DNA of 54,301 nt. Source: Opitutus sp. (GTDB taxonomy: Bacteria > Verrucomicrobiota > Verrucomicrobiia > Opitutales > Opitutaceae). The stretch spans positions 1 to 54,301 of the forward strand of contig DASZPP010000121.1 of NCBI GenBank assembly GCA_035549975.1, written 5' to 3'. The notes under the pieces were generated by a model, which saw only the letters and a program-made list of their open reading frames with translations, was not told where the DNA came from and did no database searches. How positions within the stretch are numbered: the stretch's first letter is position 1; the number at the start of each line of letters is the position of its first letter. Below, piece after piece: positions 10,367-36,669 of the stretch. The translations under genes were made by a program, and so were the position numbers.

Positions 10367-10555
10367 GGTGACACCCCGCCTGTGCCGTATGCCCAAAGGC
10401 TCAGGACCTTTTTATGTCAAGGTGGGCGCCTCCTCCACAGCGTCTGTCTTCCGATTTACGGCCGGACATCTTCCGCGGCGGTTTCAGCTCCCGTAATGTT
10501 TCTAAGGCAAAGAGCAGTTATTGAAAGCACCTCGAACACTGCAGGGTGTCGGCGT
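10367..10555 (-). ncRNA. ssrS: 6S RNA
   Basis: ~190-nt lower-GC intergenic segment; minus strand GACACCCTGCAGTGTTCG... closes with ...ACGGCACAGGCGGGGTGTC and contains CCCACCTTGA, matching 6S architecture. Confidence 0.8.
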
Positions 10556-19446: not shown

Positions 19447-20105
19447 GCCTCCACGGCCGGAGTCGGTGCCCGCCGCGCCGCTCGCGCTCGTGCGCGCCGG
19501 CGCCCAGTCAGCCTCAGCGCGACCCCGAGCGCGATCGCGCCCGCTCCCGCCGCCGTCGCCGCCGGCTCGGGCACCGCCGTCGGCATCTGGCCCGCCGTGA
19601 TCGAACCGCCCGCCGTGCTGTTGTAGGCCCAATCCACCAGGATCGTGGACGAAGAGCTGGTATAGTCGATCTCACCCCAGCCGTAATAGGTGCTGGCACC
19701 CGAAACAAAAGAGAAGCCGACATATCCCGTGTCGCCCGGATTCCACCCACCGTTCGAGTTCATCGGGAGGGCATTGACGGCCTTCAGCAACGCACTCGCG
19801 CTCGAGATCGAAGAGCCTGCCGAGAGCTTCTCCAGCACCGAGAGCGAGGGGACCCTGACAAACTCTGCCGTTTCTCCCGATTTGTCTGCAAATCCCTTCG
19901 TGTTAAGCTGAGCGTCGAACGTGCCGTCCGAATCGAAATCAATCTGGGTGGTAGTCGAACTCGAGATATTCTTCACGCCGCTATAGACGATCTGCGCCTG
20001 CGCCACCGTGGCGAGGGCGCAGCCGGCGCCCGCGGCGGCGGACAAAGCGAGCCCGCGGGACCGGAAACGATTCGAGGCAGGCGCGAAGGAAGCAACAGGC
20101 GACAC
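19374..20105 (-). CDS. PEP-CTERM surface protein; natural stop probably at ~19443 but read through to 19374
   Basis: Signal peptide ending AQA, Ser/Thr/Gly-rich beta domain, AVPEP + TM + RRR tail; less GC-biased codons than flanks. Confidence 0.88.
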   Translation of the reverse strand: MSPVASFAPASNRFRSRGLALSAAAGAGCALATVAQAQIVYSGVKNISSSTTTQIDFDSDGTFDAQLNTKGFADKSGETAEFVRVPSLSVLEKLSAGSSISSASALLKAVNALPMNSNGGWNPGDTGYVGFSFVSGASTYYGWGEIDYTSSSSTILVDWAYNSTAGGSITAGQMPTAVPEPAATAAGAGAIALGVALRLTGRRRARARAARRAPTPAVEARVRGSPRSKLATVSCRIARGLSG

Positions 20106-20382: not shown

Positions 20383-20844
20383 TCACCCCTTCAACTCGAC
20401 CACCAGCTGCACTTCCGCGGTCGAACCGCGCGGCAGCCCGTTCACCGCCACCGCCGCCCGCGCATGCCTGCCCGCATCGCCAAAAACCTTCACGAGCAGA
20501 TCGCTCGCGCCGTTGATCACCGCCGGGCTTTCGGTGAAACCGTCCACCGCATTCACGAACCCGTTCACCATCACGACGCGCGCCACCGCCTCGAGCGATC
20601 CGGCCGCCGCCTTGATGTTCGCCAGCGCATTCAGCACGCAAACCTCGGCCGCCTTCTTCGCCGTTTCGACGGTCTGCTCCTTTCCGACCGGGCCGGTATG
20701 CGTCATCTTTCCATCGAGCATCGCGATCGTGCCCGCGCAAAACAGCAGGTTTCCCGTCCGCACCGTCGGCACGTAGCTGCCCGCCGCCGCCGGCGGATTG
20801 GGCAACACCACTCCGAGTTCCGCCAGCCGCGCTTCGATATCCAT
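20383..20844 (-). CDS. RidA/YjgF family protein
   Basis: SYVP...GNLLF, INGASDLL..VFGDAGRHARAAV..LP.....EV. Confidence 0.92.
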   Translation of the reverse strand: MDIEARLAELGVVLPNPPAAAGSYVPTVRTGNLLFCAGTIAMLDGKMTHTGPVGKEQTVETAKKAAEVCVLNALANIKAAAGSLEAVARVVMVNGFVNAVDGFTESPAVINGASDLLVKVFGDAGRHARAAVAVNGLPRGSTAEVQLVVELKG

Positions 20845-20914
20845 GGCGATGGACGCTGCCCGCCGCCCCTCTGAACGCAAAGCCGTTTTTCGCCCCGTCC
20901 GTTCCCCGGCGCCC

Positions 20915-20935
20915 TTGTCATATAATGTATGACAA
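20915..20935. promoter_or_regulatory. 21-bp AT-rich palindrome TTGTCATATAATGTATGACAA (operator or dispersed repeat), copy 1
   Basis: Identical or near-identical copies at 32201, 32258 and 38554. Confidence 0.65.
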
Positions 20936-20984
20936 AGCTCCGCGCCGCCTTCTGCGCCGGCCCCGCCTCCACTCATGCCGCCGG

Positions 20985-21863
20985 TCACGGCAGCCGCAGC
21001 AGCCGCGCCGCATTCTCGCGCAACACCGCCGGCGGCACGCCCGCCGCCTTCGCCTCGGCGATGAATCGCCGCATCGATGTCGTCGCATCGGTCTTCGGGT
21101 AGAGATTCAACGGATAATCCGACCCGAACAGCACCCGCCGCTCCGGCACCGCTGCCAGGAACCGTCTCCAGATGCTGTCGTCGTACACGAGGGGCGAGGC
21201 CGCGGTATCGTAAAATACATTCGGCAACGCCTGGTCGGCGACGTTGCGCAGCGGCAGCAACCCGCCCCAGTGCGCGAGCACGAAATCCACCCGCGGCCAC
21301 GCGCGCGCCAGCTCCTCGAAATCCTCGAGCGGCGTCTCGACCCGGCCGGGATACATCCGGCTGTTCGGATCGGTCACATGCAGGTTCAGCGGCCAGCGCC
21401 ATTCCGCCGCGAGCGCGAGCGCCTCGCGCAGCGCCGCGTCCCCGACGCCGTAGCCCTGTGCATGCGGCGAAAGTTCCCCGAGGCCGATCAATCCCTCGTC
21501 CCGCGCCCGGCGCATTTCGGCCACCACGTCGCCCGGCTCCGCCCCGCGCGGCTGGATCGTCGCGAAGGCCGACAAGCGCGCCGGATGCGCACGCACGCAC
21601 TCCGCATAAAAACGATTCTGCCGCTCGCACGTTTCCGGCCGGTTCCAATACCAGCCGAGCAACACCGAGCGTTCGACATCCGTGTCGTCCATTTCCCGCA
21701 GCAATTCATCGACGCTCGGAAAACCCTGCACCATCAGCCCGCTCCTTCGGCGGCGCGTGCACAGTCCCGCCCATTCCGCCTCGCCGTGCGCCGTCGCCCA
21801 GCCCAGCGGATCACGGTTCACCTCCCCCGGATAAAGATGGACATGGCAATCGATCACTCGCAT
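20985..21863 (-). CDS. Amidohydrolase_2 family metallohydrolase
   Basis: IDCHVH, GLGEL, LAHWGG, YDTAASP, LFGSDYP. Confidence 0.9.
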   Translation of the reverse strand: MRVIDCHVHLYPGEVNRDPLGWATAHGEAEWAGLCTRRRRSGLMVQGFPSVDELLREMDDTDVERSVLLGWYWNRPETCERQNRFYAECVRAHPARLSAFATIQPRGAEPGDVVAEMRRARDEGLIGLGELSPHAQGYGVGDAALREALALAAEWRWPLNLHVTDPNSRMYPGRVETPLEDFEELARAWPRVDFVLAHWGGLLPLRNVADQALPNVFYDTAASPLVYDDSIWRRFLAAVPERRVLFGSDYPLNLYPKTDATTSMRRFIAEAKAAGVPPAVLRENAARLLRLP

Positions 21864-22027
21864 CGCCGCACAAAATTCGCTGGACGCCTTTTCAGCAAGT
21901 CTTGCCGCCGCGGCACGCTTCAGCCTGATGTTGTGGCCACGCCCACCCCCACCGCGCCTCGTTGTGGCGGCGCTCCATGACCGCCGGACTCCTGCCGCCG
22001 CGGCCGCCCGACCACGACAAACCGCCG

Positions 22028-23047
22028 ATGCCCCCGCCCCAGCCACCCCGCAAGAACTCCTTTCCGCCAGCCGACTGGTCGATCCTCGCCCGCTGCTGGC
22101 ATCCGGTCGCGCGCGCCGACGCCGTCACCACGGCCCAGCCGTTTGCCGCCCAACTGCTCGACCAGGAACTCGTGCTCTATCGCACGCCATCCGGCCTCAC
22201 GGTCGCCGCCGACGTCTGCGCCCACCGCGGCGCGCCGCTCAGCCTCGGCACGATGTGCGACGGCGCGATCGCGTGCGCCTACCACGGCTACCGCTACAAC
22301 GGCGAGGGTCGCTGCACGTTCATCCCCGCTCATCCCGGCGCGCCGATTCCCCAAAAGCTTACGCTGCGCCGCTTCGCCGCCCTCGAGCGCTTCGGTCTGA
22401 TCTGGGTTTGCCTCGACGACACCGCCTCGCCGCCGCCCGCGCCGCCGGAATTCCCGGCGTTCGCCGACGACAATTTCCAGATCATCCACGTGCCGCCGTT
22501 CGACTGGGCGGCCTCCGCCGGCCGCCAGATCGAGAGTTTTTGCGATGTCGCGCACTTCGCCTTCGTGCATCCCGTGACCTTCGCCGCGTCCGACCCTGTC
22601 GTGCCGCGCTACGACGTCGCCCCCACGGCCAGCGGCGTTCACGCCGATTTCTCCAGCCGGGTTGGCAACATCAGCAACCGGTCCGCCGCCGCCGAGTCGT
22701 GGCGGCGCGTTTACGACATTCACCTGCCCTTCACCGTCCATCTCGACATCACGTTTCCGCACGGCGGAACGATGATCGTCTTCAACGCCTCCTGCCCGCT
22801 CTCCGCCCGGCGCACGCGGATCTTCGCGAGCGTCGCCCGCAATTTCGACCGCGACCAGCCCGCGGCGGACACGATCGCGTTTCAACAGCGGATCTACGCC
22901 GAGGACCAGCGCATCGTCGAGCGCCAGAATCCCGAGGATCTTCCCGTCGATCTCGCCGAGGAAGTTCACGTTCGTGCCGACCGCACCTCCGTGGAATATC
23001 GCCGGCAACTCGCCCGTCTCGGCCTCGGCCGGGCGTTCACGGCGTGA
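22028..23047 (+). CDS. Rieske non-heme iron oxygenase alpha subunit (VanA/Ndm demethylase-like)
   Basis: CAHRG...CAYHG Rieske ligands; ESFCDVAHFAFVH and EDQRIVE mononuclear Fe site; start could be 21977. Confidence 0.88.
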   Translation: MPPPQPPRKNSFPPADWSILARCWHPVARADAVTTAQPFAAQLLDQELVLYRTPSGLTVAADVCAHRGAPLSLGTMCDGAIACAYHGYRYNGEGRCTFIPAHPGAPIPQKLTLRRFAALERFGLIWVCLDDTASPPPAPPEFPAFADDNFQIIHVPPFDWAASAGRQIESFCDVAHFAFVHPVTFAASDPVVPRYDVAPTASGVHADFSSRVGNISNRSAAAESWRRVYDIHLPFTVHLDITFPHGGTMIVFNASCPLSARRTRIFASVARNFDRDQPAADTIAFQQRIYAEDQRIVERQNPEDLPVDLAEEVHVRADRTSVEYRRQLARLGLGRAFTA

Positions 23048-23180
23048 TCCGACCGCAGCTTCATCAGCTTCCCCGCATCGCGATTCCGTCCGTAGCCCCT
23101 GCGCGAGCAGCGGGACAAGCCCGGTGTCCAATCCCTGCGCCCACGCGCAGGGCCGCCACGGCGCCGTTTCAAAGTCCGCC

Positions 23181-24575
23181 CTACAACTCCGCGCTGCTCG
23201 CGAGCGCCGCCGACTCTTCCTCTTCCTCCGATTCGTCCTCCCCGATCGCCGCCGCGCTTTTCGCCGGCCAGGCGAGGTTCATGATCAACGCCGTCAGCCC
23301 GCCCGCGGAAATTCCCGACTCGAACAGCGACCGCAGAAACGGTGGAAAACTCGCGACCAAGCCCGGCTGCGTCGGCAATCCCAGCCCGATCCCGAGCGCC
23401 AGCGCCACGATCACGCCTTCCCGTTGCCCGAGCCCGGCATTGACCAGCAGCCGCACGCCGGAAACCGCCACGAGTCCGAACATCAGCAGCGCCAGCCCGC
23501 CGAGCACCGGTGGCGGCATCGCGGTCACCCACCGGCCCACTGGCGGAAACAATCCCAGCAGCGCGAGGATCGCCGCCATCACGTAGCCGATCCGCCGGCT
23601 CGCGACGCCGGTGATCTGGATGACGCCGTTGTTCTGCGCATAGGTCGCACTCGGAAAGCCGCCGAACAGCGCCGACGTCGTGCTCAGCAATCCATCCGCG
23701 AGCACGCCGCCCGAAAGCCGCCGCCAGTGAACCCGCCCGCTCGTCTTCAGCCCGGACAACTGCGCCGTCGCGGTCATGTCGCCCATCGCCTCGAGCAGCG
23801 ACACGACGTAGATGAACGCAAACGGCGCGGCCAGCTCCCACCGAAACGCGAACCCATGCGGCAGCAACCGCGGCAACGTGATCCACGCGCCGCTTCCATC
23901 CGGCGCCGGCGCATGCAGCGCGCCGAGCAGTCCGCACAGCGCGCATCCCACCGCCACGCCGATCGCCGCGCCGGCGATCCGCAGCCACGGCCGGCCCGTC
24001 GCCTGCGCCAGCACGATCGCGATCACGACGGTCAACCCGACCGCCAATCCCAGCCACGGCGGCGCGTCCGGCCGCAAGGGAGTCGCGAGCGCGTAGTAGG
24101 CCGACGGGATCAGCGACGCGCCGATCAGCAGCACGACCGTGCCCGACACCACGGGCGTGAACACCGACCGCAGCCGCGCGATGAACGGCGCGAGCACAAT
24201 CACCAGCGGCGCCGTCACGCACGACAGCCCGAACATCAACGCCAGCCCGCCCGTCTGCCCCGCCTGGGTCAGCGGTTGCAGAAAGGCGAAGCTCGTGCCC
24301 GTCACGCTCAGCAGCCCCGAGCCGACCGGGCCGCGCTGCCGGCATTGCAGCAACGCGCCGATCGCCGAGCAGAGCAGCGCGATGCTGATCAGGTAGGCGG
24401 TCTCGGCGGCCGGGAATTTCAAGATCCCCGCGAGGATGAGCGGCGGCGTGATCGTGCCCACGACCATCGCCGACACGTGCTGGACGCCGACGAGGATCGC
24501 GACGCCGAGCGGCGGTTTCGCGTCGATGCCAAAAACGAGCGTGGTCGCCGGATCCGACGCCGGGTAGTTTTGCAC
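23181..24575 (-). CDS. NCS2 xanthine/uracil permease (XanP/XanQ-like)
   Basis: GVQH, GTSFAF, EAMGD, ADGL, NAT signature YAQNNGVIQITGVASR, PPPVLGG; GTG start. Confidence 0.92.
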   Translation of the reverse strand: MQNYPASDPATTLVFGIDAKPPLGVAILVGVQHVSAMVVGTITPPLILAGILKFPAAETAYLISIALLCSAIGALLQCRQRGPVGSGLLSVTGTSFAFLQPLTQAGQTGGLALMFGLSCVTAPLVIVLAPFIARLRSVFTPVVSGTVVLLIGASLIPSAYYALATPLRPDAPPWLGLAVGLTVVIAIVLAQATGRPWLRIAGAAIGVAVGCALCGLLGALHAPAPDGSGAWITLPRLLPHGFAFRWELAAPFAFIYVVSLLEAMGDMTATAQLSGLKTSGRVHWRRLSGGVLADGLLSTTSALFGGFPSATYAQNNGVIQITGVASRRIGYVMAAILALLGLFPPVGRWVTAMPPPVLGGLALLMFGLVAVSGVRLLVNAGLGQREGVIVALALGIGLGLPTQPGLVASFPPFLRSLFESGISAGGLTALIMNLAWPAKSAAAIGEDESEEEEESAALASSAEL

Positions 24576-24615
24576 GCCGCGAAACCAGCAACCGGCGCGC
24601 CACAACGCGACAGCA

Positions 24616-24646
24616 AAAAGCCGCCCCCGGTCCGGGAGCGGCTTTT
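24616..24646 (-). terminator. Intrinsic terminator after the TonB receptor gene
   Basis: AAAAGCCGC.CCCGG-T-CCGGG.GCGGCTTTT hairpin with T-tracts on both strands. Confidence 0.8.
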
Positions 24647-24688
24647 CCGGCCTTGCGGCCGGGATGTGTCAGGTGTTGGTGCGATCGC

Positions 24689-27010
24689 TCAGAAGCTGTA
24701 TTTGACCTTGAACGAGACTTCCGTGCCGGGCAGCGCGTTGATCGAGGCGTTGCCATACACCGGATTCGGCGGCGACCAGTTCTTCGCATCGAGCACGTTG
24801 CCGACGTCCACCCGGAAATACCACTGCTTGCTGTAGCGATACCAGACGCTGGCGTTGATCGTGTACTGCGTCGGGATCACGAGCGTGCCGGCGTAGTTGT
24901 TGTCGATTTTGCTCGTCCACTGCCCGTTCGCGGAAAAGCCCACGCCGTTGTCGAGGTTGTACGACGCCACCAGGTTCACCAGGGCCTTCGGCAGGCCGGA
25001 AACCTGGTTGACGTGCGCGTAGTCGATGCCCTCGGTCGGCAGCAGGTCGACACCACCGTCCGACTGGAACGGCGCGGTCACCGTGGCGTCCTCCACCGAA
25101 TAGGAGGCGGTGAAGTAGAGGTGCCGGTTCGGCTGATAGTTCATCTCGGCCTCGAATCCGCGCGCGTCGAAGGTCTGAATCACCGTGCTGCTGGTGCTCT
25201 TCGCCGTGCGGGTTTGTTCGTAGACCGCGAAGTTCAGGAAGAGTTTGTTCTGCAGCAGGGCAAACTTCGATCCGACCTCGAACAGCTCGCTCGGCTGCAG
25301 GAAGTTTTCCTTGTCGAGCATGAGGCCGGTGCTGTCCCAGCCGGTGATGCCACCGCCGTTGCCGACCGCGCCGGACGTGTTCTTGCTGAAGTTATAGGTG
25401 AAATAAAGACTGGAGGTGTTGGTGGGCTTGAGGACGAACGAGGCGTTGTAACTCGGATCCCAGACGCTGATGGAGGAATCCGGCTTCGGGTCGGGCCAGA
25501 GCGGATCGATCACGTTCGCGTGAAAGCGGTCTTCGCGGATGCCGGAGCGGATATCGACCATGCTGCCCAGATGCCACGTCGCCTGGAAGAACGGTCCCAC
25601 GGTCGTGGCGTAGCTGTCGTTGGTGTCGCCGTTGATCGTGCCCTGGGTGGCGTAGCGGTCCGGCCAGCCCGGCACCGGCTGCCCGACGAAACGTCCGTAG
25701 AACGCATCGGCATTGTACACGTTCACGTAATGGAGGTCCTTCGTCAGGTCCCACACGTTCGCCGGCTCGAAGAAATAATCGTCATACGCGGTGGTCCGCT
25801 GGTAGCGGAGGTCCAGACCCGTGTTGATCTCGACCCACGGCTTGGTGATCACCAGCTCGGTGCGGCTCTCGACGAACCACGACGGATCGATGATTTCCGA
25901 GTAGTAATATCCGCTCAGCGTGTTGCGGTCCGTGTAGCTGAAAAACGAATTGTTCACGATCTTGAAGTCGCCCTCCGCGCGGTAGGTCTGGATGGCCTGC
26001 GCGTTGAACTCGCGGCCGGTCGAGTGATTGCCGGGGCTGAGCAGGCGCACATGGCGGTCGAGCTTCACCGTCGGCCCGATCGCGAGCTGGTTGCCGCTGT
26101 CGAGCACGTATTTCGAGTTCTGCGGATCGGAGAGCGGGGCGCCGGCGCCATTGTTGTCGTTGACGCCGGTGATGTACATTCCGTTGTCGATCAGGTCCTG
26201 CGTCACGCGGTTGATGCCCCAGTTCTCCGTGTAACGATACCAGCTCGCGGAGGCGTTCACGAACAGCTCGTAGTTGTCGCTGGGCCGGTAGGTCATCGCG
26301 CCGTAGAACGAGTTGTTCTTGTTGTAGTAGTCGTGGTAGTAGCCGTTGCTATCCACGCCCGAGTAGCTGAAGCGGTAGGCGAGCTGCTTGGAAAGCGGCC
26401 CGCCGACGTCGACGTTCCACTCCTTCTGGTTGTAGGAACCGATCGTGGCGCTGACGCTGCCCTTGAAACCGTCGAAATAGGGGCGCTTCGTGATCAGGTC
26501 GATGAACCCGCCGACGTACATCGAGGTGCCCTGCACCGCCGTGGCCGGGCCCTTGACGATGTTGACGGACTCGACCGAATTGAAGTCGAGCGGCAGGCCG
26601 TTGCCGTTGGAAGTGATGCGCCCGCGCACGCCGTTGATGAACAAGTCGGCCGACTGGCCGCGAATCGAGGGGTTGGCCGGCGCGCCGAAATTCGTCGTCG
26701 TGTAGGAGCTCGAGGTGAGCTTCGAAAAATCCAGCACGCTCGAAATGTCGATGTCGCTCAGTTGCTGGCGCGAAATGATGGTGACGTTGCGCGGCACGTT
26801 GACGATGTTGTCGTCGGTGCCGAAGACCGAGTTGAACGGCCGCGAGGTCGGCAGGATCTGCTGCTCGATCGGCACCTGGTTGACATCCAATTTCTCGAGT
26901 TGAACGGTTTCATCGTCGGAGGGCGTCGCATCGGATTGCGCCGAAGCGGGAATCACCGTCGCCACCGCCATTAGCACGGCGCAGAGACTGGGAATGCGCG
27001 TTTTATTCAT
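24689..27010 (-). CDS. TonB-dependent outer-membrane receptor
   Basis: Signal peptide, plug motifs (VPRNVTIIS, SIRG, VESVNIVKGP), aromatic-rich barrel, C-terminal KYSF. Confidence 0.93.
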   Translation of the reverse strand: MNKTRIPSLCAVLMAVATVIPASAQSDATPSDDETVQLEKLDVNQVPIEQQILPTSRPFNSVFGTDDNIVNVPRNVTIISRQQLSDIDISSVLDFSKLTSSSYTTTNFGAPANPSIRGQSADLFINGVRGRITSNGNGLPLDFNSVESVNIVKGPATAVQGTSMYVGGFIDLITKRPYFDGFKGSVSATIGSYNQKEWNVDVGGPLSKQLAYRFSYSGVDSNGYYHDYYNKNNSFYGAMTYRPSDNYELFVNASASWYRYTENWGINRVTQDLIDNGMYITGVNDNNGAGAPLSDPQNSKYVLDSGNQLAIGPTVKLDRHVRLLSPGNHSTGREFNAQAIQTYRAEGDFKIVNNSFFSYTDRNTLSGYYYSEIIDPSWFVESRTELVITKPWVEINTGLDLRYQRTTAYDDYFFEPANVWDLTKDLHYVNVYNADAFYGRFVGQPVPGWPDRYATQGTINGDTNDSYATTVGPFFQATWHLGSMVDIRSGIREDRFHANVIDPLWPDPKPDSSISVWDPSYNASFVLKPTNTSSLYFTYNFSKNTSGAVGNGGGITGWDSTGLMLDKENFLQPSELFEVGSKFALLQNKLFLNFAVYEQTRTAKSTSSTVIQTFDARGFEAEMNYQPNRHLYFTASYSVEDATVTAPFQSDGGVDLLPTEGIDYAHVNQVSGLPKALVNLVASYNLDNGVGFSANGQWTSKIDNNYAGTLVIPTQYTINASVWYRYSKQWYFRVDVGNVLDAKNWSPPNPVYGNASINALPGTEVSFKVKYSF

Positions 27011-27122
27011 GAGTGTGTGTGTTAGGAACTGAATGAGTTCGTCAGCAGTTCACATACCATTCATCCAATGCTCAAGCCTAACCGCGGCACACCCTTGGCC
27101 CGCGTCCGCTGATCAATTTCCC

Positions 27123-27908
27123 ATGCGTCTCCTCCCCGCTTCCCTTCGCGCACTGGCCGTTTTCATCGCGCTCGGCCTCGTCCTCGCCCGGTCCGCACCC
27201 GCTCCCGCGGATGCCGTCGACCTATTGCTGGTCAGTGGCGAAGATCGCGCCCTCCAGCCCGTGCTCGATCGCCTGCAGGGCGCGCAGCGGGAGACGCACG
27301 CCGCCTGGACGCTCTGGGTCGGTGCGCTCGCCGGCAAACGTGTCGCCGTGGTTCGCTCCGACGGCGATCCGCTCAACGCCGTCGCCGCGACCACGCTGGC
27401 CCTCCGGCACCATCCGCCGCGGCTGATTTTCATTTTCGGCACCGCCCGGGCCCACGATCCCGCGCTGCACGACGGCGACGTCGTCGTCGCGGGAAACTTT
27501 GCCGCGTTCGACGGCATCGTCTCACCGACGATCGATCTCGGCGCCGGCAGCGATGCGCTGCACTGGGACCGGCTGCCGCACCTGCTGATGACCTCCGGCG
27601 AAACGGAAAAGGCCGCCGACACCTTCCCCGCTGACCCGGATGCGACCACCGTCGCCCTGAAACTCCGCGCTCCTTCCGGCCGCGTGCTGCGCGGCGTGCT
27701 CGGTTCCGCGAATCAAATCAATCGCGAGGCCGACCGCATCGCCTGGCTTCACGCTCATTGGGGCACGAGCACCGAGGACGGTGAGTCCGCGCACATCGCC
27801 GGCTGCGCCGCGCTCTTCGGCATCCCGGTCGCCGGCGCCCGGGTCGTCAACGGCTCCCCCGCCGACGCCGCCAAATTCGCCCTCGAGTTCACGGAGGCAT
27901 GGAAATGA
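27123..27908 (+). CDS. Secreted MTA/SAH nucleosidase-like (PNP_UDP_1) protein, catalytically degenerate
   Basis: Signal peptide; GTARAHDP.LHDGDVVV, GVLGSAN, EDGESAHIA; lacks the N-terminal Glu and the SD motif. Confidence 0.8.
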   Translation: MRLLPASLRALAVFIALGLVLARSAPAPADAVDLLLVSGEDRALQPVLDRLQGAQRETHAAWTLWVGALAGKRVAVVRSDGDPLNAVAATTLALRHHPPRLIFIFGTARAHDPALHDGDVVVAGNFAAFDGIVSPTIDLGAGSDALHWDRLPHLLMTSGETEKAADTFPADPDATTVALKLRAPSGRVLRGVLGSANQINREADRIAWLHAHWGTSTEDGESAHIAGCAALFGIPVAGARVVNGSPADAAKFALEFTEAWK

Positions 27909-28717
27909 AACAAATCCTTCTGCTCGTCCTTCTGGCGGTCGCCGCGCACGCCACCGAGCCCGTCGAGGTCCTCGTGCAAGGCGCGGAAAAACTCGAGGTG
28001 ACCGATCTCGTCGCCGCCCTCGGCCCGCAGGCCGAAAAAATCGCAATCGGCCCGTTCAGCTTCTGGCTCGGCCGGATCGGCCCGCATCGCGTCGCCGTCT
28101 CGCTCACCGGCCAGGGGCTCATCAACTGCACCGCCGCCACGATTGTCGGCATCGAGGAATTCCACCCGCGGCTCATCGTCAACCAGGGCACCGCCGGCGC
28201 GCAGGCGCCGTTCCTCGCGCTCAACGACATCATCGTCGGCCGCCGCGCGCTCGATTACGGCAATTTCATCACGCCCGTCCGCGCCGCCGGCGCCGGCAGC
28301 TCGCCGCTGACGTGGACGCCGATCCCTCAAAGCCTGCGCGATCCCGCCACCGACAAAATGGTCGCGTTTCCCCGCGGCTTCACCGGTGACGCCGCCGCGA
28401 TCGCCGTCGCCCTGCGCACCCGCAATCCCCTCGGCCGCGTCTTCCCCGGCGTCGTCGGCTCCGCCCACGAGGTGAACCTCGAACTCGACCGCGTGCGCTG
28501 GTCGCACGAGACGTTCGGCATGGATGTCGAGGAAATGGAGTCCGCCCACGTCGCCGCGCTCGCCCACGCCTTCGGCCTCCGCTACGTCACCTTCCGCGTC
28601 GTCAGCGACGCGCCCTACGAAGGCGTGCCGTTCGATGCACTTGCCGCTCGCGCCACCGCCCTCTTCACGATCAACTTCCTCGGCAATCTTCCCGCCCCGA
28701 CCCCCGGCTCGAACTGA
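27905..28717 (+). CDS. Secreted MTA/SAH nucleosidase-like (PNP_UDP_1) protein
   Basis: Signal peptide; QGAEKLE, NQGTAGA, DIIVG, EEMESAHVA, RVVSD; ATGA overlap with the paralog. Confidence 0.85.
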   Translation: MKQILLLVLLAVAAHATEPVEVLVQGAEKLEVTDLVAALGPQAEKIAIGPFSFWLGRIGPHRVAVSLTGQGLINCTAATIVGIEEFHPRLIVNQGTAGAQAPFLALNDIIVGRRALDYGNFITPVRAAGAGSSPLTWTPIPQSLRDPATDKMVAFPRGFTGDAAAIAVALRTRNPLGRVFPGVVGSAHEVNLELDRVRWSHETFGMDVEEMESAHVAALAHAFGLRYVTFRVVSDAPYEGVPFDALAARATALFTINFLGNLPAPTPGSN

Positions 28718-28725
28718 TCCCTTCC

Positions 28726-30060
28726 ATGCTCAACCGTCTCTTCAAGCTCGACGAGAACCGCACCACCGTCGGCCGTGAAATCCAGGCCGGCCTCACGACG
28801 TTCGCCGCGATGGCCTACATCCTCGCCGTCAATCCCGACATCCTGTCCGCGACCGGCATGGACAAGGGCGCGCTCGTCACCGTCACCGCCATGACCGCCG
28901 CCGTCGCGACGGCCATCATGGCGTTCATGACCAATTACCCGATCGCGCTCGCGCCGGGGATGGGCATCAACGCCTTCTTCACCTACACGATCTGCCTCAC
29001 GCGCCACGTCCCCTGGCCGGAGGCGCTCGGCATGGTCTTCGTCAACGGCCTGATCTTTTTCCTGCTCTCGATCACCGGCGTCCGCGAACGGATCATCGCC
29101 GCCATCCCGCACTCGCTGAAAATCGCCGTCACCTGCGGCATCGGGTTGTTCATCGCCTTCATCGGCCTGAAAAACGGCGGCGTCATCATCGCCAGCCCGG
29201 CCACTTTCGTCACGCATGGCGACTTCGCCTCCGGCCCGGTCATGCTCTGCCTCGTCGGCATCCTGCTCACGGCGATCCTCGTTTCGCGGCGCGTGCCCGG
29301 TGCGATCGTCCTCAGCATCGCGCTCGTCACGCTCGCCGGCTTGTTCGTTTCCGCCGGCAATGGCGCGCATGTCACGCAACTTCCCGCCAGTTTCTTCGCG
29401 CTTCCCGCCTCGCCCGCGCCGATCTTCCTCAAGCTCTCCTTTCACTTCCTCACCAGCTCGGCCGCGTTCTTCGTCGCGCTCCCGTTGATCCTCACGCTGC
29501 TGCTCGTCGACATGTTCGACAACATCGGCACCCTCATCGGCGTCACCAAGCGCGCCGGCTTTCTCCGCCCCGACGGCACGCTGCCGCGCGCCGGCCGCGC
29601 GCTCCTCGCCGACTCGATCGCCACGCTCCTCAGCGCGCTCAGCGGCACCTCGACCGTCACAAGCTACATCGAGTCCGCCTCCGGCGTGGAAGCCGGCGGC
29701 CGCACCGGCCTGACGACGCTCACGACCGCCGTGCTCATGCTGCTCGCGCTTTTCCTCACCCCGCTGATCCTGATCGTCCCCTCCGCCGCCACCGCGCCCG
29801 CGCTCGTGATCGTCGGCGTTTTCATGATGCAGTCGGTGATCGAAATCGACATGGCCGACTTCAAGATCGCCGTCCCCGCCGTCCTCACGATCCTGATGAT
29901 CCCGCTGACGTTCAGCATTGCCGAGGGCATCGGCATCGGCCTCATCGCCGCGTCGCTGCTCGCGATCGGCACCGGCCGCGCGAAGAGCCTCACGCCCTTC
30001 GCCTACGCCATCGCCGCCGTCTTCTTCCTCGAATTTTTCAGCATCTGGCCCTTCCGGTGA
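28726..30060 (+). CDS. NCS2/AzgA-type adenine-guanine-hypoxanthine permease
   Basis: AGLTTF..MAYILAVNP, LAPGMGINAFF, DMFD.IGTL, TSYIESASGVEAGGRTGLT, PLTFSIAEG. Confidence 0.93.
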   Translation: MLNRLFKLDENRTTVGREIQAGLTTFAAMAYILAVNPDILSATGMDKGALVTVTAMTAAVATAIMAFMTNYPIALAPGMGINAFFTYTICLTRHVPWPEALGMVFVNGLIFFLLSITGVRERIIAAIPHSLKIAVTCGIGLFIAFIGLKNGGVIIASPATFVTHGDFASGPVMLCLVGILLTAILVSRRVPGAIVLSIALVTLAGLFVSAGNGAHVTQLPASFFALPASPAPIFLKLSFHFLTSSAAFFVALPLILTLLLVDMFDNIGTLIGVTKRAGFLRPDGTLPRAGRALLADSIATLLSALSGTSTVTSYIESASGVEAGGRTGLTTLTTAVLMLLALFLTPLILIVPSAATAPALVIVGVFMMQSVIEIDMADFKIAVPAVLTILMIPLTFSIAEGIGIGLIAASLLAIGTGRAKSLTPFAYAIAAVFFLEFFSIWPFR

Positions 30061-30074
30061 CAATACCGCCCAAC

Positions 30075-30146
30075 CACACCGACAGATACGAATGAACAAC
30101 AGATCGCGAAATCGCATCTGTGTTTATCCGTGTCCATCCGTGGTTG
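30075..30146. repeat. Imperfect IR with ~9-10-nt periodic units between convergent genes
   Basis: ACAGAT...ACAGAT facing ATCTGTGTTTATCCGTGTCCATCCGTGGTT. Confidence 0.65.
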
Positions 30147-30150
30147 ATCC

Positions 30151-31986
30151 TCATTCGAACAACGGCAGAATCTTCATCCCCGGCACCGTCACCAATCCCT
30201 TGTCGGTGATCCGGATCTCCGGAATCACCGACAGCGGGATCAAATTGAAACCCATGTAAGGCAGCGTGCAGCCGGCCTCCTGCCACGCCTTCTTCAGCGC
30301 GGTCGACTCCTTCGCCACGATCGTCGCGCGCTTGTCCGAGATCAACCCCGCCACCGGGAGCGCCACGCTCGCGACGACGCGCCCGTCGCGAACGATGCAC
30401 ACGCCGCCGCGCAATTTCCTGATCGTCGCCAGCGCCACCTGCATATCGGCCTCATTCGTGCCGGCGAGGATGATGTTGGGCGCGTCGTGCCCCACCGAAC
30501 TGCCGACCGCGCCCGCCCTCAGGCCGAAATCCTTCAACAGGCCGTGCGCCACCGCGCCGGATTTGCCGTGACGTTCGACCACCGTCACGAAGCACAATCC
30601 GTGTTTCGCGAACTGGTCCGCCCACGTCCCGCTCGTAGCGGCAGGCGTCCCTGCCTGCCGTACTGCCGCCGGCTCCAGGCTCACCGTGTCGTGAAACAGG
30701 ATGATCCCCGGCAGCGCCGTCCGGATCACATTCGCCGTCACCGGCTCCGCCGGCAGCTCCGGTGTGAGCCGCCGCTTTTTCTTCGACAGCTTCACCGTCT
30801 GGTAAGCCGCGCGCGGATAGCGGTAACGTTTGCTCAGCGCCTGGTCCAAAACCGGCGTGATCTTCCGGTTCTCGACGACCAGCTCGCCGCCGAACCACGT
30901 GTTCTGCACCTCCAGCGCATCGTTCAACAGCACCACGTCCGCGCGCCGCGAGTGCCCGAGCCCGCCGACGTCGCCATCCTTCGCGTAACGCGTCGCGCCG
31001 TGCAGCGAGCCCATGCTCCACGCTGTCACCGGCGGCAGCCCGGCCTTCACCGCTTCGCGCACGACCCAGTCCATCCCGAACAAGAACAAATCGTCCGCGT
31101 CGCGATCATCCGTGCACACGCACACGCGCTTCGGGTTCGCGCCAAGCTCCGTCACCGCCTTGATCGCCAGCGGCAGCGAATGCCACGGCGTCTGCGGATT
31201 CCCGCCGCGCAGGAAAATCCAGATGCCCGCCTCGAGGAAGTCGTTCGCGATCTCGCGGTCGATCGACTCGTGCGTGTCGGTGATCCCGCTCGCCGCGCCC
31301 GCCGCAACGAATTCCCGCCCGTAAATGTGCCCGCACACCGGCCGCCCGCGCTTGATCGCCTCCGCCAGGATCGCATGGCTGCGCCCGTCGCCCATCGCGA
31401 CCTGCACGAAGTCCATCTTCTCGCCGAGCGCGACCGCCTCCGGCCACTTGTCGAAAATCATCCCGATCTTTTTTGGCGTCAGGTCGCCGCCGGCCGTCTC
31501 GAACTCCGGCGTCGTCGCCGGCACCGTGCTTGGCACCGTCAAAAAAATCGACAGTGGCGCCTGCCGCGCATCCGCCAGCATCCATTCCACGCCCGCCGCG
31601 TCGCACACGTTGCCGATTTCGTGGCTGTCGCAGAAAATCGTCGTCGTGCCGTTGAGCAGCGCGCCCTCCGCATACGCGCACGCCGTCATCATCGAGCTCT
31701 CGATGTGGATGTGCGGATCGACCAGCCCCGGTGCGAGGATCCCGCCATGCGCATCGTAAACTTTCGTCTTTCCGCCTTTCGTCGGCTTGAACGTCCCCGC
31801 CGCTTTCACCGCCGCGATCCGTCCGCCCTTGATCCAGATCTCGCGCCCGTCGTGAATCCGCTCCGTGTAAGTCGAGAGCACGCGTGCGCCGGTGATCACG
31901 AGATCGGGCGCCTCGCGTCCCATCGCCACCGCGGCGAGCGTTCGGGTCATCGTGTGCAGGGGCGCAACCGAGAATCGCGTGAGCAT
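30151..31986 (-). CDS. ade: Adenine deaminase (COG1001 family)
   Basis: [64 protein letters not shown]. Confidence 0.93.
30635..30662 (+). repeat. GTAG-type REP inside the ade coding sequence
   Basis: GTAG + CGGCAGGC-GTCCCT-GCCTGCCG perfect 8-bp hairpin; encodes part of [12 protein letters not shown] on the minus strand. Confidence 0.65.
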
Positions 31987-32200
31987 GCCGTCGTTCTAAG
32001 CGCAAATCCGCTCCCGGCGAAAGCGCGAAAACTCCCCGTCTCATCTTCTCGCCAGCCTGGTTCGCTTCCCGTTTTCCGAGGGACCACCTCCAGTTGGTCC
32101 GCGCTCCACGCGCACCTAAACCGTCCCGGATGAATCCACCCGCCATCTTCCCGTCCGTCCCATCTTACCATCCCATCTTCCATTTCCTCCCCGCGCTCAT

Positions 32201-32278
32201 TTGTCATATAAGGTATGACAACCGCCGTCGTCTTCTCGCGAAAACGCCCGCGAGCAATTGTCATACATTATATGACAA
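32201..32278. promoter_or_regulatory. Two inverted copies of the 21-bp palindrome between divergent ade and adenosine deaminase
   Basis: TTGTCATATAAGGTATGACAA (32201-32221) and TTGTCATACATTATATGACAA (32258-32278). Confidence 0.7.
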
Positions 32279-32355
32279 CCGCGGGAGGCGTTTCACCGCA
32301 TCCGGAGCCGCGGTTTCGCTTGCCGGCGGCGCGGCGCGTGCTTCTCGTCCGCTCC

Positions 32356-33777
32356 ATGAGACTGCGCCTGCTTCTCCTCGGTATCGCCGGTTTCTTCCTC
32401 TGCAATCTTCGCGCCGCCGATTTCGCCGACCGGTTCGAGGAGCTGAAAACGCACGCGACGCCCGCGCAACTTTACGCATTGCTCTACGATCTCCCCAAAG
32501 GCGGCGACCTCCACAACCACTCCGGTGGCGAAGACCGGCCCGAAGTGCTTTTCACGATCGCGACCGATCCCAAGCGCAACGGCGGCGACACCATTTACAC
32601 CCGCGTCCGTTTCCGTGATCTGCCCGACGCGATCAACCCCACGCAGCGCTTCCACAACATCCGCCAGCACACCTACGACCACCTTCCGCCCGACGAGCAG
32701 GCCGAATACGTCCGTCTCGACGCGCTCACTCCCGCCGGGCGCGCCGACTGGTGCAACAGCCTCCGGCTCGACGCGCCCGGCGAGGGCCGCGCCGAATTTT
32801 TCGACGTCATCTGGGACCGCCTCGGCGAGATCGACGACAACCTCGCCATCGCCACCGAAATGATCGTCGAAAACATGAAGGCCTTCGGCGCCGAGCATCT
32901 CGTCTACCTCGAGACCCAGTTCGGCATCGAGCACATGCGCAACAACGCCGGGCAACCGATCCCCGCCGACGCCGCCGTCGCCTTCGTCAAGCATCGCCTC
33001 GCCCAGCCCGACGTCGCCGCCACCGGGGTGACGGTGCGATTTCAGCGCACGATCCTGCGCTTCACCCCCGACGCCGAACAAGTGCTCGGCGAGGCCTACG
33101 CCTTCGTCGATGCGCACCGCGACCTCTGGGTCGGCCTCAACATGGCCGGCATTGAGGAAAACGGCCACGGCTACCCCGCGCGCTTCCTTTCCGTCTTTCG
33201 CCGCCTCCGCGCGAAATATCCCACGCTCAAACTCTCGATCCATGCCGGCGAGATGGATGGCCCCGACTCGCACATCCGCGACACACTCCTCCTCGGCGCC
33301 TCGCGCATCGGCCACGGGACCAACCTGCTCAAGGACCCCGACACGCTCCTGCTCCTCCAGCAAACCCGCCGCGTCCTGATCGAGGTCAGCCTCATCTCCA
33401 ATCACGTCCTCGAATATGCCCCGGACCTGACGCAGCATCCGTTCCCGGAATATCTGCGCACCGGCATCCCCGTCTGCCTGAACACCGACGATCGCGGCAT
33501 GTGGGACTCCAACCTGACCGACGAATACTTCACCGCCGTCACGACCTTCCATCTCTCCTGGGACGAAATCGTCGGGATCGGTCGCAACTCGCTCGCCTTT
33601 TCTTTCGTGCAGCCCGATGTGAAACAGAAACTCCTCGCCGACTACGCCACCCGTGTCGCCGCCTTCGAACAAAAATACGGCGCCGGCTCGCTCGACGATT
33701 CCCTCTCCGCCCTCTCCACCGTCCACCCCGTCGCCTACACCTACGCGAAGAAAACCTGGGGCCTCGCCTTCAAGTAG
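32356..33777 (+). CDS. Secreted adenosine deaminase, ADGF/ADA2-like
   Basis: Signal peptide; LPKGGDLHNH, HAGE, RIGHG, HPF, NTDD. Confidence 0.88.
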   Translation: MRLRLLLLGIAGFFLCNLRAADFADRFEELKTHATPAQLYALLYDLPKGGDLHNHSGGEDRPEVLFTIATDPKRNGGDTIYTRVRFRDLPDAINPTQRFHNIRQHTYDHLPPDEQAEYVRLDALTPAGRADWCNSLRLDAPGEGRAEFFDVIWDRLGEIDDNLAIATEMIVENMKAFGAEHLVYLETQFGIEHMRNNAGQPIPADAAVAFVKHRLAQPDVAATGVTVRFQRTILRFTPDAEQVLGEAYAFVDAHRDLWVGLNMAGIEENGHGYPARFLSVFRRLRAKYPTLKLSIHAGEMDGPDSHIRDTLLLGASRIGHGTNLLKDPDTLLLLQQTRRVLIEVSLISNHVLEYAPDLTQHPFPEYLRTGIPVCLNTDDRGMWDSNLTDEYFTAVTTFHLSWDEIVGIGRNSLAFSFVQPDVKQKLLADYATRVAAFEQKYGAGSLDDSLSALSTVHPVAYTYAKKTWGLAFK

Positions 33778-33915: not shown

Positions 33916-34359
33916 CTACTCCCCCGCCGACGCTCCACTTCCCGCCCGCACGACCAGAATCGGCACCGCCGTGTTGTGCCGCACGCGATCGATCGTGCTT
34001 CCGTAAAAAATGTCCCCGATCAGCTTGTGCCCGTGCGACGTCATCGCGATGAGGTCGCACTGCCGCGCGTGCGCGGTCTTCACGATCTCGCTCGGTGGAT
34101 TGCCCATCGCGAGTTCCGTCCCGACCACCAATCCGTTCGCCCGGAGTCGTCCCGCGATTCCTTCGAGGTAGGCGCGATCCGCCTTCATCTCGTCCGATTC
34201 CGCGAGCCCCAATTGCTCGAAATTCCTCGCGGCAAACCCATCCGCGACGTGCACCAGCAGCAGCTCCGACCCCATCCGCCGCGCCAGTTCCGCGACGTGC
34301 GGCACGACTGCGTCGTCCGCCCGGCTGTTCTCCAGCGCCACTAGGATTTTTTTATACAT
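33916..34359 (-). CDS. Universal stress protein
   Basis: MYKKILVAL, LLLVHV, GNP..EI, DLIAMTSHG, GS...V, PILVV. Confidence 0.92.
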   Translation of the reverse strand: MYKKILVALENSRADDAVVPHVAELARRMGSELLLVHVADGFAARNFEQLGLAESDEMKADRAYLEGIAGRLRANGLVVGTELAMGNPPSEIVKTAHARQCDLIAMTSHGHKLIGDIFYGSTIDRVRHNTAVPILVVRAGSGASAGE

Positions 34360-34441
34360 GCCTGAAAGTCCGGGAACCGGGGTCCAAAGCTTGGAGCTGC
34401 GGCGGAATGCTCGAGTGGTGCGGTCCGTTTTGGCTGTCGCT

Positions 34442-35803
34442 CTAGGCCTTTCCGGTCACGCCGGCGATGTCCAGCAGCAGCTTCACGTTGAGCCCGATGA
34501 TAAGCACCGTCGTGGCCCAGCCAAGCAGTTTGATCCACCACGAATTCACAAACTCCCCCATCTTCGCCCGTTCGCCCGTGAACCGCATCAACGGCCAGCA
34601 CGCAAACCCCAGTTGCATGCTCAGGCCCACTTGGCTCGCGACGATCAGCTCCGTCGACTTGCCCTCGCCCGCGATCCCGATCACCAGCACCGCCGGCACG
34701 ACGGCGATCGCACGCGTGATCAACCGCCGCAGCCACGGCCGGATGCGCACGTTGATGAATCCCTCCATCACGATCTGCCCCGCCAGCGTTCCGGTCAGCG
34801 TCGAATTCTGCCCCGACGCCAGCAGCGCCACCGCGAACAGCATGCTCGCAAAAGTCACCCCCATCAGCCCGTCGAGCAGGTGATAAGCGTCCTGGATCTC
34901 CGCCACCTCCCCGTGCCCGCGCGTGTGGAACACCGCTCCCGCCAGCACGAGGATCGCCCCGTTGATGAACAACGCGAACATCAGCGCCACCGTCGAGTCC
35001 AGCGTCGCAAACCGGATCGCCTCCCGCTTGCCGCCCGCCGTCTGCTCGTATTTCCGCGTCTGCACGATTGACGAGTGCAGGTAGAGATTGTGCGGCATCA
35101 CCGTCGCGCCGAGGATGCCGATGGCCGCGTACAGCATCCCGGGGCGGCGCAAAATATCCGCGCTCGGCACGAAGCCCGCCAGCACGCCGCCCAGTTCCGG
35201 CTTCGCGATGAATAGCTCGACGGCAAAACACGTCCCGATCGTCGCGATCAACGTCACCACCACCGCCTCCAGGTACCGGAACCCGCGATTCTGCAGCAGC
35301 AGCACGATCATCACGTCCAGCGCCGTGATCAGGCAGCCCCACACCAGCGGAATGCCGAACAGCAATTGGAGCGCGATCGCCGAACCCACCACTTCCGCGA
35401 GGTCGCACGCCGCGATCGCCAGCTCGCACAGGATCCACTGGAACCACACCACCGGCGTCGGATAATGATCGCGGCACGCCTGCGCCAGGTCCCGCCCCGT
35501 CGCGATGCCCAGCTTCACGCACAGGTGCTGCAGCAAAATCGCCATCAGGTTCGAAACCATGATGACGGACAGCAGCGTGTAGCCGAACTGCGCCCCGCCC
35601 GCCAGGTCCGTCGCCCAGTTCCCCGGGTCCATGTAGCCCACCGCCACCAGGAAACCCGGGCCCGCAAACGCGAAAAACTTCCGCCAGAACGGCGCCCCCG
35701 CCGGCACCGCGATCGTCCCGTGGACTTCGCCCAGGCTCGCCGCGCCCGCCGCCCGCCGCCAGCCCGCCGTGGGTGGTGGGGAGGAGGACGCGTCGCCGTT
35801 CAT
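34442..35803 (-). CDS. mntH: Nramp Mn2+/Fe2+ transporter
   Basis: GYMDPGNWATD, GATVMPHNLYLHS, GQNSTLTGTLAGQIVMEGF. Confidence 0.97.
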   Translation of the reverse strand: MNGDASSSPPPTAGWRRAAGAASLGEVHGTIAVPAGAPFWRKFFAFAGPGFLVAVGYMDPGNWATDLAGGAQFGYTLLSVIMVSNLMAILLQHLCVKLGIATGRDLAQACRDHYPTPVVWFQWILCELAIAACDLAEVVGSAIALQLLFGIPLVWGCLITALDVMIVLLLQNRGFRYLEAVVVTLIATIGTCFAVELFIAKPELGGVLAGFVPSADILRRPGMLYAAIGILGATVMPHNLYLHSSIVQTRKYEQTAGGKREAIRFATLDSTVALMFALFINGAILVLAGAVFHTRGHGEVAEIQDAYHLLDGLMGVTFASMLFAVALLASGQNSTLTGTLAGQIVMEGFINVRIRPWLRRLITRAIAVVPAVLVIGIAGEGKSTELIVASQVGLSMQLGFACWPLMRFTGERAKMGEFVNSWWIKLLGWATTVLIIGLNVKLLLDIAGVTGKA

Positions 35804-35825
35804 GCCCCGAACACGGCACGAATTG

Positions 35826-35843
35826 ATTTTGATTAGTCAAAAT
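35826..35843. promoter_or_regulatory. Probable MntR/DtxR operator
   Basis: AT-rich palindrome ATTTTGATTAGTCAAAAT in the short divergent mntH/mntR spacer. Confidence 0.75.
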
Positions 35844-35887
35844 AAATCTTTATTTGCCTCAAAACCATGATTCGCTATCGCCCGCTC

Positions 35888-36550: not shown

Positions 36551-36669
36551 GACGCGTTGACCCAACCCACCGGTTCGCGGCGCACACGCATTTTCGACCT
36601 CGCCGGGCTGCGAGTCGCCCGCGCACCTTCGCCTTGCGGCTCCTGTTGCGCTCCCGCACGCTCCCGCCG

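Follow-up and report, generated by a model that had tools for sequence, protein, structure and literature searches.

Several described systems resemble the locus reported here, ten genes around a TonB-dependent receptor on a 54,301-nucleotide contig from Opitutus sp. (C121; the window means this whole stretch of DNA, and the locus lies at 20383..33777). The rus locus of Bacteroides thetaiotaomicron (BT2802-09) likewise joins a TonB receptor to an exported nucleoside hydrolase and an inner-membrane transporter, but as far as its accessible text goes it has a SusC/SusD pair, an IU-family hydrolase and ribokinases, it uses ribose as carbon, and its receptor and hydrolase are dispensable on nucleosides (10.1101/574913). 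Nuh of Pseudomonas aeruginosa likewise cleaves adenosine in the periplasm, with uptake of the base as a nitrogen source; it is quorum-controlled, control by RpoN was proposed and is unconfirmed, and the accessible text of the paper names no outer-membrane receptor (PMC5437708). In the Opitutus locus, the enzymes are of the 5'-methylthioadenosine/S-adenosylhomocysteine (MTA/SAH) nucleosidase (MTAN) and adenosine deaminase (ADA) families, they are accompanied by base permeases and a sigma-54-type promoter, and no SusD-like or ribokinase gene was seen.

We consider it probable, from the genes and their conservation, that the Opitutus locus belongs to a conserved receptor-centred purine cluster which, under nitrogen limitation, imports adenosine-type nucleosides, cleaves or deaminates them in the periplasm and hands the bases to breakdown; we infer both the substrates and the signal. 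The core of import and processing is supported because the receptor co-occurs with purine genes in changing gene orders and the enzymes have conserved export signals. The first-pass annotation had read the ten genes as one unit for the uptake and salvage of modified purines. Its import step, exported enzymes and base permeases are supported (the latter two occur together in 43 of 80 close loci), and its modified purines, salvage purpose and ten-gene unit are not. It also called nucleosidases and deaminases usually cytoplasmic, which overstates the surprise, since the accessible texts on Nuh (PMC5437708) and on secreted bacterial ADA2 (PMC13516308, PMC10358891) describe such enzymes. The individual enzymes and the strategy of periplasmic cleavage are already known, and this limits the surprise. 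What is added here is the sigma-54-type promoter, the reassignment of a Rieske oxygenase towards HpxD and a degenerate nucleosidase, MTN1. Purine-nucleoside scavenging is an apparently unpublished use for this class of importer; we found no TonB-dependent purine-nucleoside receptor and no such locus in a literature search that lay mostly outside subscription journals.

The receptor and its purine neighbours

We compared 140 receptor loci, made up of the best 80 of 97 confirmed close matches and 60 hand-picked places (37 order-level orthologues and 23 paralogues of ~26-32% identity). Neighbourhoods were counted over ~9-10 kb on either side of the receptor, with genes called by an in-house script. 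The closest loci belong to Opitutaceae or Verrucomicrobiota, and within the phylum receptor matches at E<=1e-75 occur in 26 of 401 genomes, all of one order. A purine gene lies near the receptor in 76/80 close loci, 23/37 order-level orthologues and 3/23 paralogues. Where at least 5 kb is present on both flanks, the counts are 34/34 close loci versus 3/15 paralogue loci. An exported enzyme and a base permease are found together in 43 close loci, in 8 of the 37 order-level loci and in none of the 23 paralogue loci. This set of receptor, exported enzymes and permease agrees with the proposed likeness to a polysaccharide utilisation locus (PUL/CUT-like); the likeness stops at the SusD partner and the local regulator, as no SusD partner was found among the ten genes or the 39 scanned recurrent-neighbour proteins.

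The neighbours themselves vary widely in order and orientation. Among the 80 close loci there are an AzgA-type permease in 51, a XanP-type permease in 47, an adenine-deaminase-like protein (Ade) in 30, a NUP-family protein in 28, an amidohydrolase in 24, an amidase in 23, a Rid-family protein in 22, MTN1 in 21, MTN2 in 19, an S-adenosylmethionine (SAM)-hydrolase-family protein in 18, the exported deaminase in 16, 8-oxoguanine deaminase in 14 and the Rieske oxygenase in 4. Recurrent neighbours from outside the window set are purine genes as well: 8-oxoguanine deaminase, a PuuD-type urate oxidase, a guanine-deaminase-like protein and the NUP and SAM hydroxide adenosyltransferase families. The window set lacks the NUP-family and SAM-hydrolase-family genes that 28 and 18 of the 80 relatives carry. 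In L184 and L185 the receptor sits inside a full purine catabolic cluster. All ten genes recur together in 1/140 other loci (L101, where MTN1 is divergent). The stable unit is the receptor with a changing set of purine genes, and the ten genes of the window are one variable assortment.

Three assortments in the relatives deserve description. In many relatives the gene directly after the receptor encodes a protein of the SAM hydroxide adenosyltransferase (DUF62) family whose N-terminus is signal-like (18 close loci, among them L113:12590-13498). The substrate may accordingly be SAM or a related adenosyl compound; the family was not found in the host genome (4.38 Mb, 95.7% complete). In L002, L004 and L119 the receptor is accompanied by Ade, Rid, DUF3891 and a formamidase-family gene, joined in L004 by an amidase; this suggests a further uncharacterised purine-related step. 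A membrane-type protein of 520-550 aa without a Pfam or NCBIfam match at the thresholds applied adjoins the receptor in 8/37 order-level loci, stands beside adenosine and 8-oxoguanine deaminases in the host genome and lies between two Rieske genes in genome G399 (L016:5738-7402; host contigs C386:10328-11974 and C109:2097-3692; L178:17126-18700). It is a candidate new purine permease family.

Beyond Verrucomicrobiota we looked for the same link among plasmid homologues (24-28% identical) and rejected it, the two regions read having unrelated neighbours. In L141 and L142 (Pseudoalteromonas and Catenovulum; 27-28%) a conserved operon headed by the receptor homologue also encodes DUF547, a CDP-alcohol phosphatidyltransferase and an ABC transporter; these homologues presumably have a different substrate.

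The exported enzymes

Export was called by a hydrophobicity heuristic, a hydrophobic stretch before the domain, and not by SignalP, so that periplasm and exterior are not distinguished by it. Signal-like N-termini were found in 22/23 MTN1, 21/21 MTN2 and 19/20 exported-deaminase homologues, bearing out the signal peptides first noted on these three proteins, and in 34/41 NUP and 17/18 SAM-hydrolase-family homologues. The corresponding counts are 2/45 for Ade, 1/25 for the amidohydrolase, 2/25 for Rid and 0/5 for the Rieske protein, all four in the window, and 2/14 for 8-oxoguanine deaminase and 0/4 for the guanine-deaminase-like protein. Three more distant deaminases (L018, L019, L034) start with twin-arginine-like motifs.

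MTN2 has an intact catalytic set of Glu12, Glu-Met-Glu, Arg193 and Ser-Asp197, invariant in 20 aligned homologues; here the roles and numbering of Glu12, Met173, Glu174, Arg193 and Asp197 are those we take to hold for the E. coli MTA/SAH nucleosidase. The whole protein scores under the equivalog cut-offs. Its best structure match (E 5e-42; other MTA/SAH nucleosidases 2.5e-11) is PDB 5b7g, which we take to be MtaN-1, the periplasmic MTA/SAH nucleosidase of Aeromonas hydrophila. MTN2 and 5b7g share insertions absent from cytoplasmic MTANs, but 5b7g has Ser-Asn where MTN2 has Ser-Asp, and we know of no degenerate partner subunit for MtaN-1. The Ser-Asp motif points to 6-amino-purine substrates, and MTN2 would therefore act in parallel with the deaminase instead of following it.

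MTN1 is 35% identical to MTN2 and is kept at 53-78% identity in 119 homologues. It lacks the full catalytic set of an MTA/SAH nucleosidase. Met173 is replaced by Gly in 97/120 and Asp197 by Gly in 111/120 homologues, and the loop that follows is deleted. Glu174 (104/120) and Arg193 (107/120) are kept, and the Glu12 column is ambiguous, with Glu in 40 of 120 and Asp one position earlier in 83. The MTN1 stop codon overlaps the MTN2 start, and every MTN2-bearing locus also carries MTN1 (20/20). From these residues and this pairing, MTN1 is likely an impaired or altered partner subunit of MTN2. A dimer model of the pair scored 0.96, with a best control of 0.00, agreement between runs on at least 99% of contacts and partner pLDDT of at least 95; the score mark was reached by 116/157 solved pairs and 2/215 mismatched pairs. 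The model makes an MTN1-MTN2 heterodimer plausible. The MTA/SAH nucleosidase family is known for homodimers, and the score may merely reflect likeness to solved ones.

The exported deaminase was first labelled ADA2-type. Its signal, its size (473 aa) and its N-terminal motif are ADGF/ADA2-like, and the zinc and catalytic motifs are kept in 18, 19, 23 and 22 of 23 homologues. The family score does not follow, as TIGR01431 gives 74 bits (cut-off 315) and human ADA2 (3lgd, E 1e-11) ranks below ADA1-type structures. The plasmid search gave no match to this deaminase. By description it can be likened to the secreted ADA2 of Elizabethkingia anophelis, which bears a signal and has 502 aa; in the accessible text that enzyme is proposed for signalling, and nutrient uptake is not its role (PMC13516308, PMC10358891).

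A sigma-54-type promoter and nitrogen genes

The DNA upstream of the receptor carries a recurring TGGCAC-N5-GTGCT-like motif. We seeded a matrix with the sigma-54 consensus, trained it on the 37 odd-numbered close loci and set a threshold of 10 bits. At or above this value the receptor site is present in 36/38 held-out close loci versus 0.9% of shuffles, and elsewhere in 9/37 order-level and 0/20 paralogue loci. Two further loci (L179, L180) have the receptor and XanP sites too. Sites also precede XanP (31/47), NUP (18/27) and Ade (13/28), and seldom MTN (3/21), the exported deaminase (1/15), the amidohydrolase (1/20), Rid (0/22) or the Rieske gene (0/4). In L061-L140 those of XanP, NUP and Ade lie mostly 27-33 bp above the start codon, and the transcripts would therefore be leaderless or nearly leaderless; in the window, the probable GTG start of XanP is 28 bp below its site.

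The conserved GG-N10-GC (-24/-12) promoter and an rpoN gene, features of a sigma-54 regulon, are both present in the host genome. Its highest-ranking upstream site is that of the receptor (rank 1 of 30), the only one of 14 receptor-like genes with such a site. Outside the locus there are 28 more upstream sites, and nine of these stand before nitrogen-related genes, seven so classed by scanned families or neighbours and two, unscanned, by the nitrite cluster beside them. The seven comprise a GlnII-like gene, Amt, an FNT channel in the nirA-narK cluster, a gene divergent from urtA, and the catabolic genes for malate synthase, OHCU decarboxylase and xanthine dehydrogenase. A promoter motif common to amtB, glnII, nitrite and catabolic genes points to nitrogen scavenging. 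In a survey of sigma-54 regulons in Opitutia, the main text covers nitrogen-fixation, motility and ABC genes and is without nucleosides (PMC12316311).

A proposed route from nucleoside to ammonia

We suggest the following route. The receptor would concentrate the nucleoside, powered by a TonB system encoded elsewhere (TonB genes are present in the host genome). MTN2, probably with the degenerate MTN1, would free adenine from adenosine, MTA or SAH, and in parallel the exported deaminase would convert adenosine to inosine and ammonia. Inosine would be cut by another enzyme encoded elsewhere, perhaps of the NUP or IU-hydrolase family. The two NCS2 permeases, members of a family that carries bases according to the accessible text of one report (PMC11633122), would import adenine/hypoxanthine and xanthine/urate. 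Ade would then yield hypoxanthine, xanthine dehydrogenase or perhaps the HpxD-like Rieske protein would oxidise it, and the enzymes of contig C342 would degrade the product onward via allantoin to ammonia and glyoxylate, with Hpt/Gpt salvage as the alternative fate.

Seven enzymes encoded on contig C342 are over curated cut-offs, namely xanthine dehydrogenase, HIU hydrolase, OHCU decarboxylase, ureidoglycine aminohydrolase, allantoinase, allantoate amidohydrolase and malate synthase; the contig also has a guanine-deaminase-like gene. Genes of PuuD type are spread over three further contigs, and in relatives some C342-type catabolic genes adjoin the receptor. NupC and BMP nucleoside transporters were not found in the host genome. 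In this genome two NUP genes and an IU-family hydrolase with a signal-like start (C21, C145, C275; L151:6934-7959, L152:9924-10877, L198) encode candidates for cutting inosine; no solved relative of the NUP family was found by sequence search.

An alternative is a locus devoted mainly to nucleotide salvage. Both Hpt and Gpt are over their cut-offs, and adenine phosphoribosyltransferase (Apt) was not found in the host genome, at 95.7% completeness, so that adenine would probably be deaminated before salvage too; reuse by Hpt would in this way explain the deaminases with no need of a nitrogen role. However, the promoter is of the kind found before the amtB, glnII, nitrite and catabolic genes, and oxidative and ring-degrading genes are among the neighbours of the receptor. 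These point to nitrogen release, and we regard salvage as an unlikely purpose of the locus, though a possible use of some of the base.

The remaining proteins and a possible use of modified purines

The Rieske protein was first described as an Ndm-like demethylase. NdmA/NdmB (PDB 6ick, 6icl) belong to the same Rieske oxygenase group, and NdmA is the best solved match (E 3e-52). However, the protein is 47-49% identical to HpxD versus 32-33% to a pair from a caffeine-type cluster that is called Ndm-like by context. In a 14-row midpoint-rooted tree, the Opitutaceae sequences form a separate clade, sister to the HpxD group (100/99) and outside the HpxD clade, with HpxD on a long branch (1.01). Its role is most likely purine ring oxidation, judged by this grouping. 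No HpxE/NdmD-type reductase was found in the 95.7% complete host genome (best E 0.88; PF00175 only in two large flavoproteins). The gene occurs in 10/251 genomes of the family, with some copies away from the receptor. In Klebsiella, according to the accessible text, hpxDE oxidise hypoxanthine and xanthine (PMC7373994). The Rieske gene of the window, 48% identical to HpxD, and that of Klebsiella both stand beside an NCS2 permease; the latter is near hpxO, hpxR, uraD and uraH, and our matrix scores 16 bits upstream of hpxO. Unlike Klebsiella, the host genome gave no HpxE, HpxR or HpxO, and the annotated hpx region compared has no receptor or exported nucleosidase. A second purine cluster on host contig C386 (L150:8186-14326) contains a small Rieske-ferredoxin-like gene, the 520-550 aa permease candidate, and adenosine and 8-oxoguanine deaminases. 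The ferredoxin-like protein, so named from its sequence, may donate electrons to the Rieske protein that lacks a reductase.

Ade forms a distinct clade, with metal-ligand motifs in 42-46/46 homologues and 341 bits on TIGR01178 (cut-off 472.5); a more canonical paralogue lies on C371. Copies 72% identical to it are found on 117 alphaproteobacterial, mostly rhizobial, plasmid records (L207:13992-15794 is one region). Given this unusually high identity, gene transfer across phyla is possible. The context of the one rhizobial region gave no substrate hint.

A locus specialised for methylated or otherwise modified purines would use the Rieske protein for demethylation and the divergent Ade for stripping N6 substituents. 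The NdmA match, the mere sister position to a long-branched HpxD, the xanthine dehydrogenase and canonical Ade that already exist in the genome and so may leave other substrates to the window copies, and the 8-oxoguanine deaminase (14/80) and exported SAM-hydrolase-family protein (18/80) of relatives all speak for it. But the identities and tree support favour HpxD, no reductase was found, the Rieske gene is rare (4/80), and the scanned neighbours hold no recurrent formaldehyde-handling genes, unlike the caffeine-type cluster. We think this specialisation quite improbable, and methylated purines as the substrate are unsupported.

Concerning the other proteins, the XanP permease is over the cut-off on TIGR00801 and has 355 of 414 on TIGR03173. 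No NCBIfam model matched the second permease, whose AzgA subtype we presume from motifs; it is likely co-transcribed with MTN2, 8 bp upstream. On TIGR00004 the Rid protein reaches 43 bits against a cut-off of 106. Its nearest relatives are PDB 3d01 and PA0814, and it belongs to another Rid subfamily than the RidA of the first label. The amidohydrolase travels with an amidase gene in 22/24 loci, an amidase that the window does not have, and no informative relative was found in PDB, Atlas or plasmids.

The receptor and its cargo

The receptor has the features of a TonB-dependent transporter, with a signal peptide, Plug and barrel Pfam domains over cut-off and a C-terminal Phe. Its model, from a 125-row alignment, is a plug and beta-barrel (pLDDT 91.9), and Foldseek gives TM ~0.7 to FhuA, FpvA and PiuA. 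The ligand is likely a purine nucleoside, judged from neighbours and promoter only.

It could instead carry some other nitrogen compound, a cofactor or a chelated metal, with the purine genes gathered by shared nitrogen control or by a shared chromosomal site beside argA. The nearest solved folds and the automatic database names of the family are those of siderophore receptors, mntH and mntR flank the locus, argA is near in 15/80 loci, and 14 of the 37 order-level orthologues are without purine neighbours; but identity to solved receptors is 12-17%, mntH is near the receptor in 4/140 loci, and the purine link is found again in several families, where both the chromosomal setting and the partner genes differ, so that we hold another cargo to be very doubtful.

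Layout and flanks of the locus

The ten genes are contiguous, with no foreign genes among them (Table 1). This part of the first annotation stands; its RidA and Ndm-like labels give way to the profile scores and relatives, and its ADA2-type label finds no backing in the family score. The strand order (- - + - - + + + - +) implies several transcription units and rules out one operon. The receptor and MTN1 are divergent, with 112 bp between them; MTN1, MTN2 and the permease run together with a 4-bp overlap and then an 8-bp gap; the Ade and exported deaminase genes are divergent.

Table 1. Features of the purine locus in window coordinates. The starts at 20844, 21863, 22028, 24575, 27123, 27905 and 32356 are probable.
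Feature	Position	Strand	Basis
Rid-family protein (PF14588 subfamily)	20383..20844	-	profile and nearest relatives
amidohydrolase_2 protein (PF04909), no signal	20985..21863	-	Pfam
Rieske non-heme iron oxygenase (PF00355+PF19112), sister to HpxD xanthine hydroxylase	22028..23047	+	Pfam, tree
NCS2 permease (PF00860), xanthine/urate (PbuX-like; XanP) type	23181..24575	-	profile scores
sigma-54-type -24/-12 site of XanP permease, 13.5 bits	24587..24603	-	matrix
TonB-dependent receptor (PF07715+PF00593), 773 aa	24689..27010	-	Pfam, model
sigma-54-type -24/-12 site of receptor, 19.6 bits	27044..27060	-	matrix
MTN1, exported MTA/SAH-nucleosidase paralogue (PNP_UDP_1, PF01048)	27123..27908	+	Pfam, alignment
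MTN2, exported MTA/SAH-type nucleosidase (PNP_UDP_1, PF01048)	27905..28717	+	Pfam, motifs
NCS2 permease (PF00860), AzgA type	28726..30060	+	Pfam; subtype presumed from motifs
adenine-deaminase-like protein (Ade, PF13382), cytoplasmic	30151..31986	-	Pfam, motifs
weak sigma-54-like site, 6.8 bits (under 10-bit threshold)	32326..32342	+	matrix; ~30 bp above exported-deaminase start
exported adenosine-deaminase-family protein (A_deaminase, PF00962), 473 aa	32356..33777	+	Pfam

Over the receptor gene (window 24001-27000) G+C falls to ~0.61 and GC skew flips sign, which is probably an amino-acid composition effect. In most relatives Rid directly adjoins argA. Here Rid is separated from the SASA-argA genes by two others (window 17905-20105), one for a methyltransferase that has PF10119 and PF21782-like domains, the other a short exported gene that bears a VPEP sorting-like motif but matches no Pfam family. 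The flank on the other side holds usp, mntH, mntR and an ABC permease (33916-38364), and these are near the receptor in only 4-8/140 loci. Rfam at its gathering threshold gave no riboswitch or structured RNA in the window other than 6S RNA (10369-10550, minus strand). One rhizosphere RNA run was rejected as a source of expression data, because its short near-identical contigs fall in locus and flanks alike and show neither transcription nor co-induction.

Weight of the evidence and meaning

Several points weigh against nitrogen-controlled nucleoside import. The loci are kin and lack independence (L001 and L073 even represent a single region), some entries of the purine gene list came from the receptor neighbours themselves, and a purine neighbour is absent in the 14 order-level orthologues given above and in the distant homologues of Pseudoalteromonas and Catenovulum, which adjoin unrelated genes. 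As to regulation, none of five scanned sigma-54 activators (of 12 matches) is over the NtrC cut-off of TIGR01818 (best 425 of 559), other sites in the host genome precede genes that we take for flhB, aconitase and an ABC ATPase, and a rough comparison of strands over 3271 genes gave 22 sense versus 17 antisense sites, a near-parity due in part to divergent genes that share upstream DNA. In the window no good site precedes MTN1, Ade, the Rieske gene or the amidohydrolase, and no local substrate-sensing regulator was found among the ten genes or the 39 scanned neighbour proteins. A NupG/YegT-family MFS transporter is present in the genome among sugar-catabolism-like genes, and the exported enzymes might work extracellularly instead of in the periplasm.

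A bolder proposal goes further than nitrogen-limited nucleoside import. The receptor would found a family of TonB transporters for adenosyl compounds (adenosine, MTA, SAH and possibly SAM) induced through sigma-54 in nitrogen starvation, it would feed a periplasmic heterodimeric nucleosidase whose dead MTN1 subunit reshapes the MTN2 active site, and the Rieske protein and Ade would add damaged or methylated purines. We offer this only tentatively and think it rather less likely to be right than wrong.

The conserved MTN1-MTN2 pair, if it is a real complex, would place a pseudo-enzyme subunit within a homodimer family. For a receptor family that databases label as siderophore receptors, the proposed import of nucleosides under nitrogen limitation offers a substrate class and a regulator that can be tested. 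Marine bacteria contend for nucleosides as sources of nitrogen, as the accessible text of one study describes (PMC8027193). The cluster suggests active uptake across the outer membrane as a means by which Opitutales compete for dissolved purine nitrogen.

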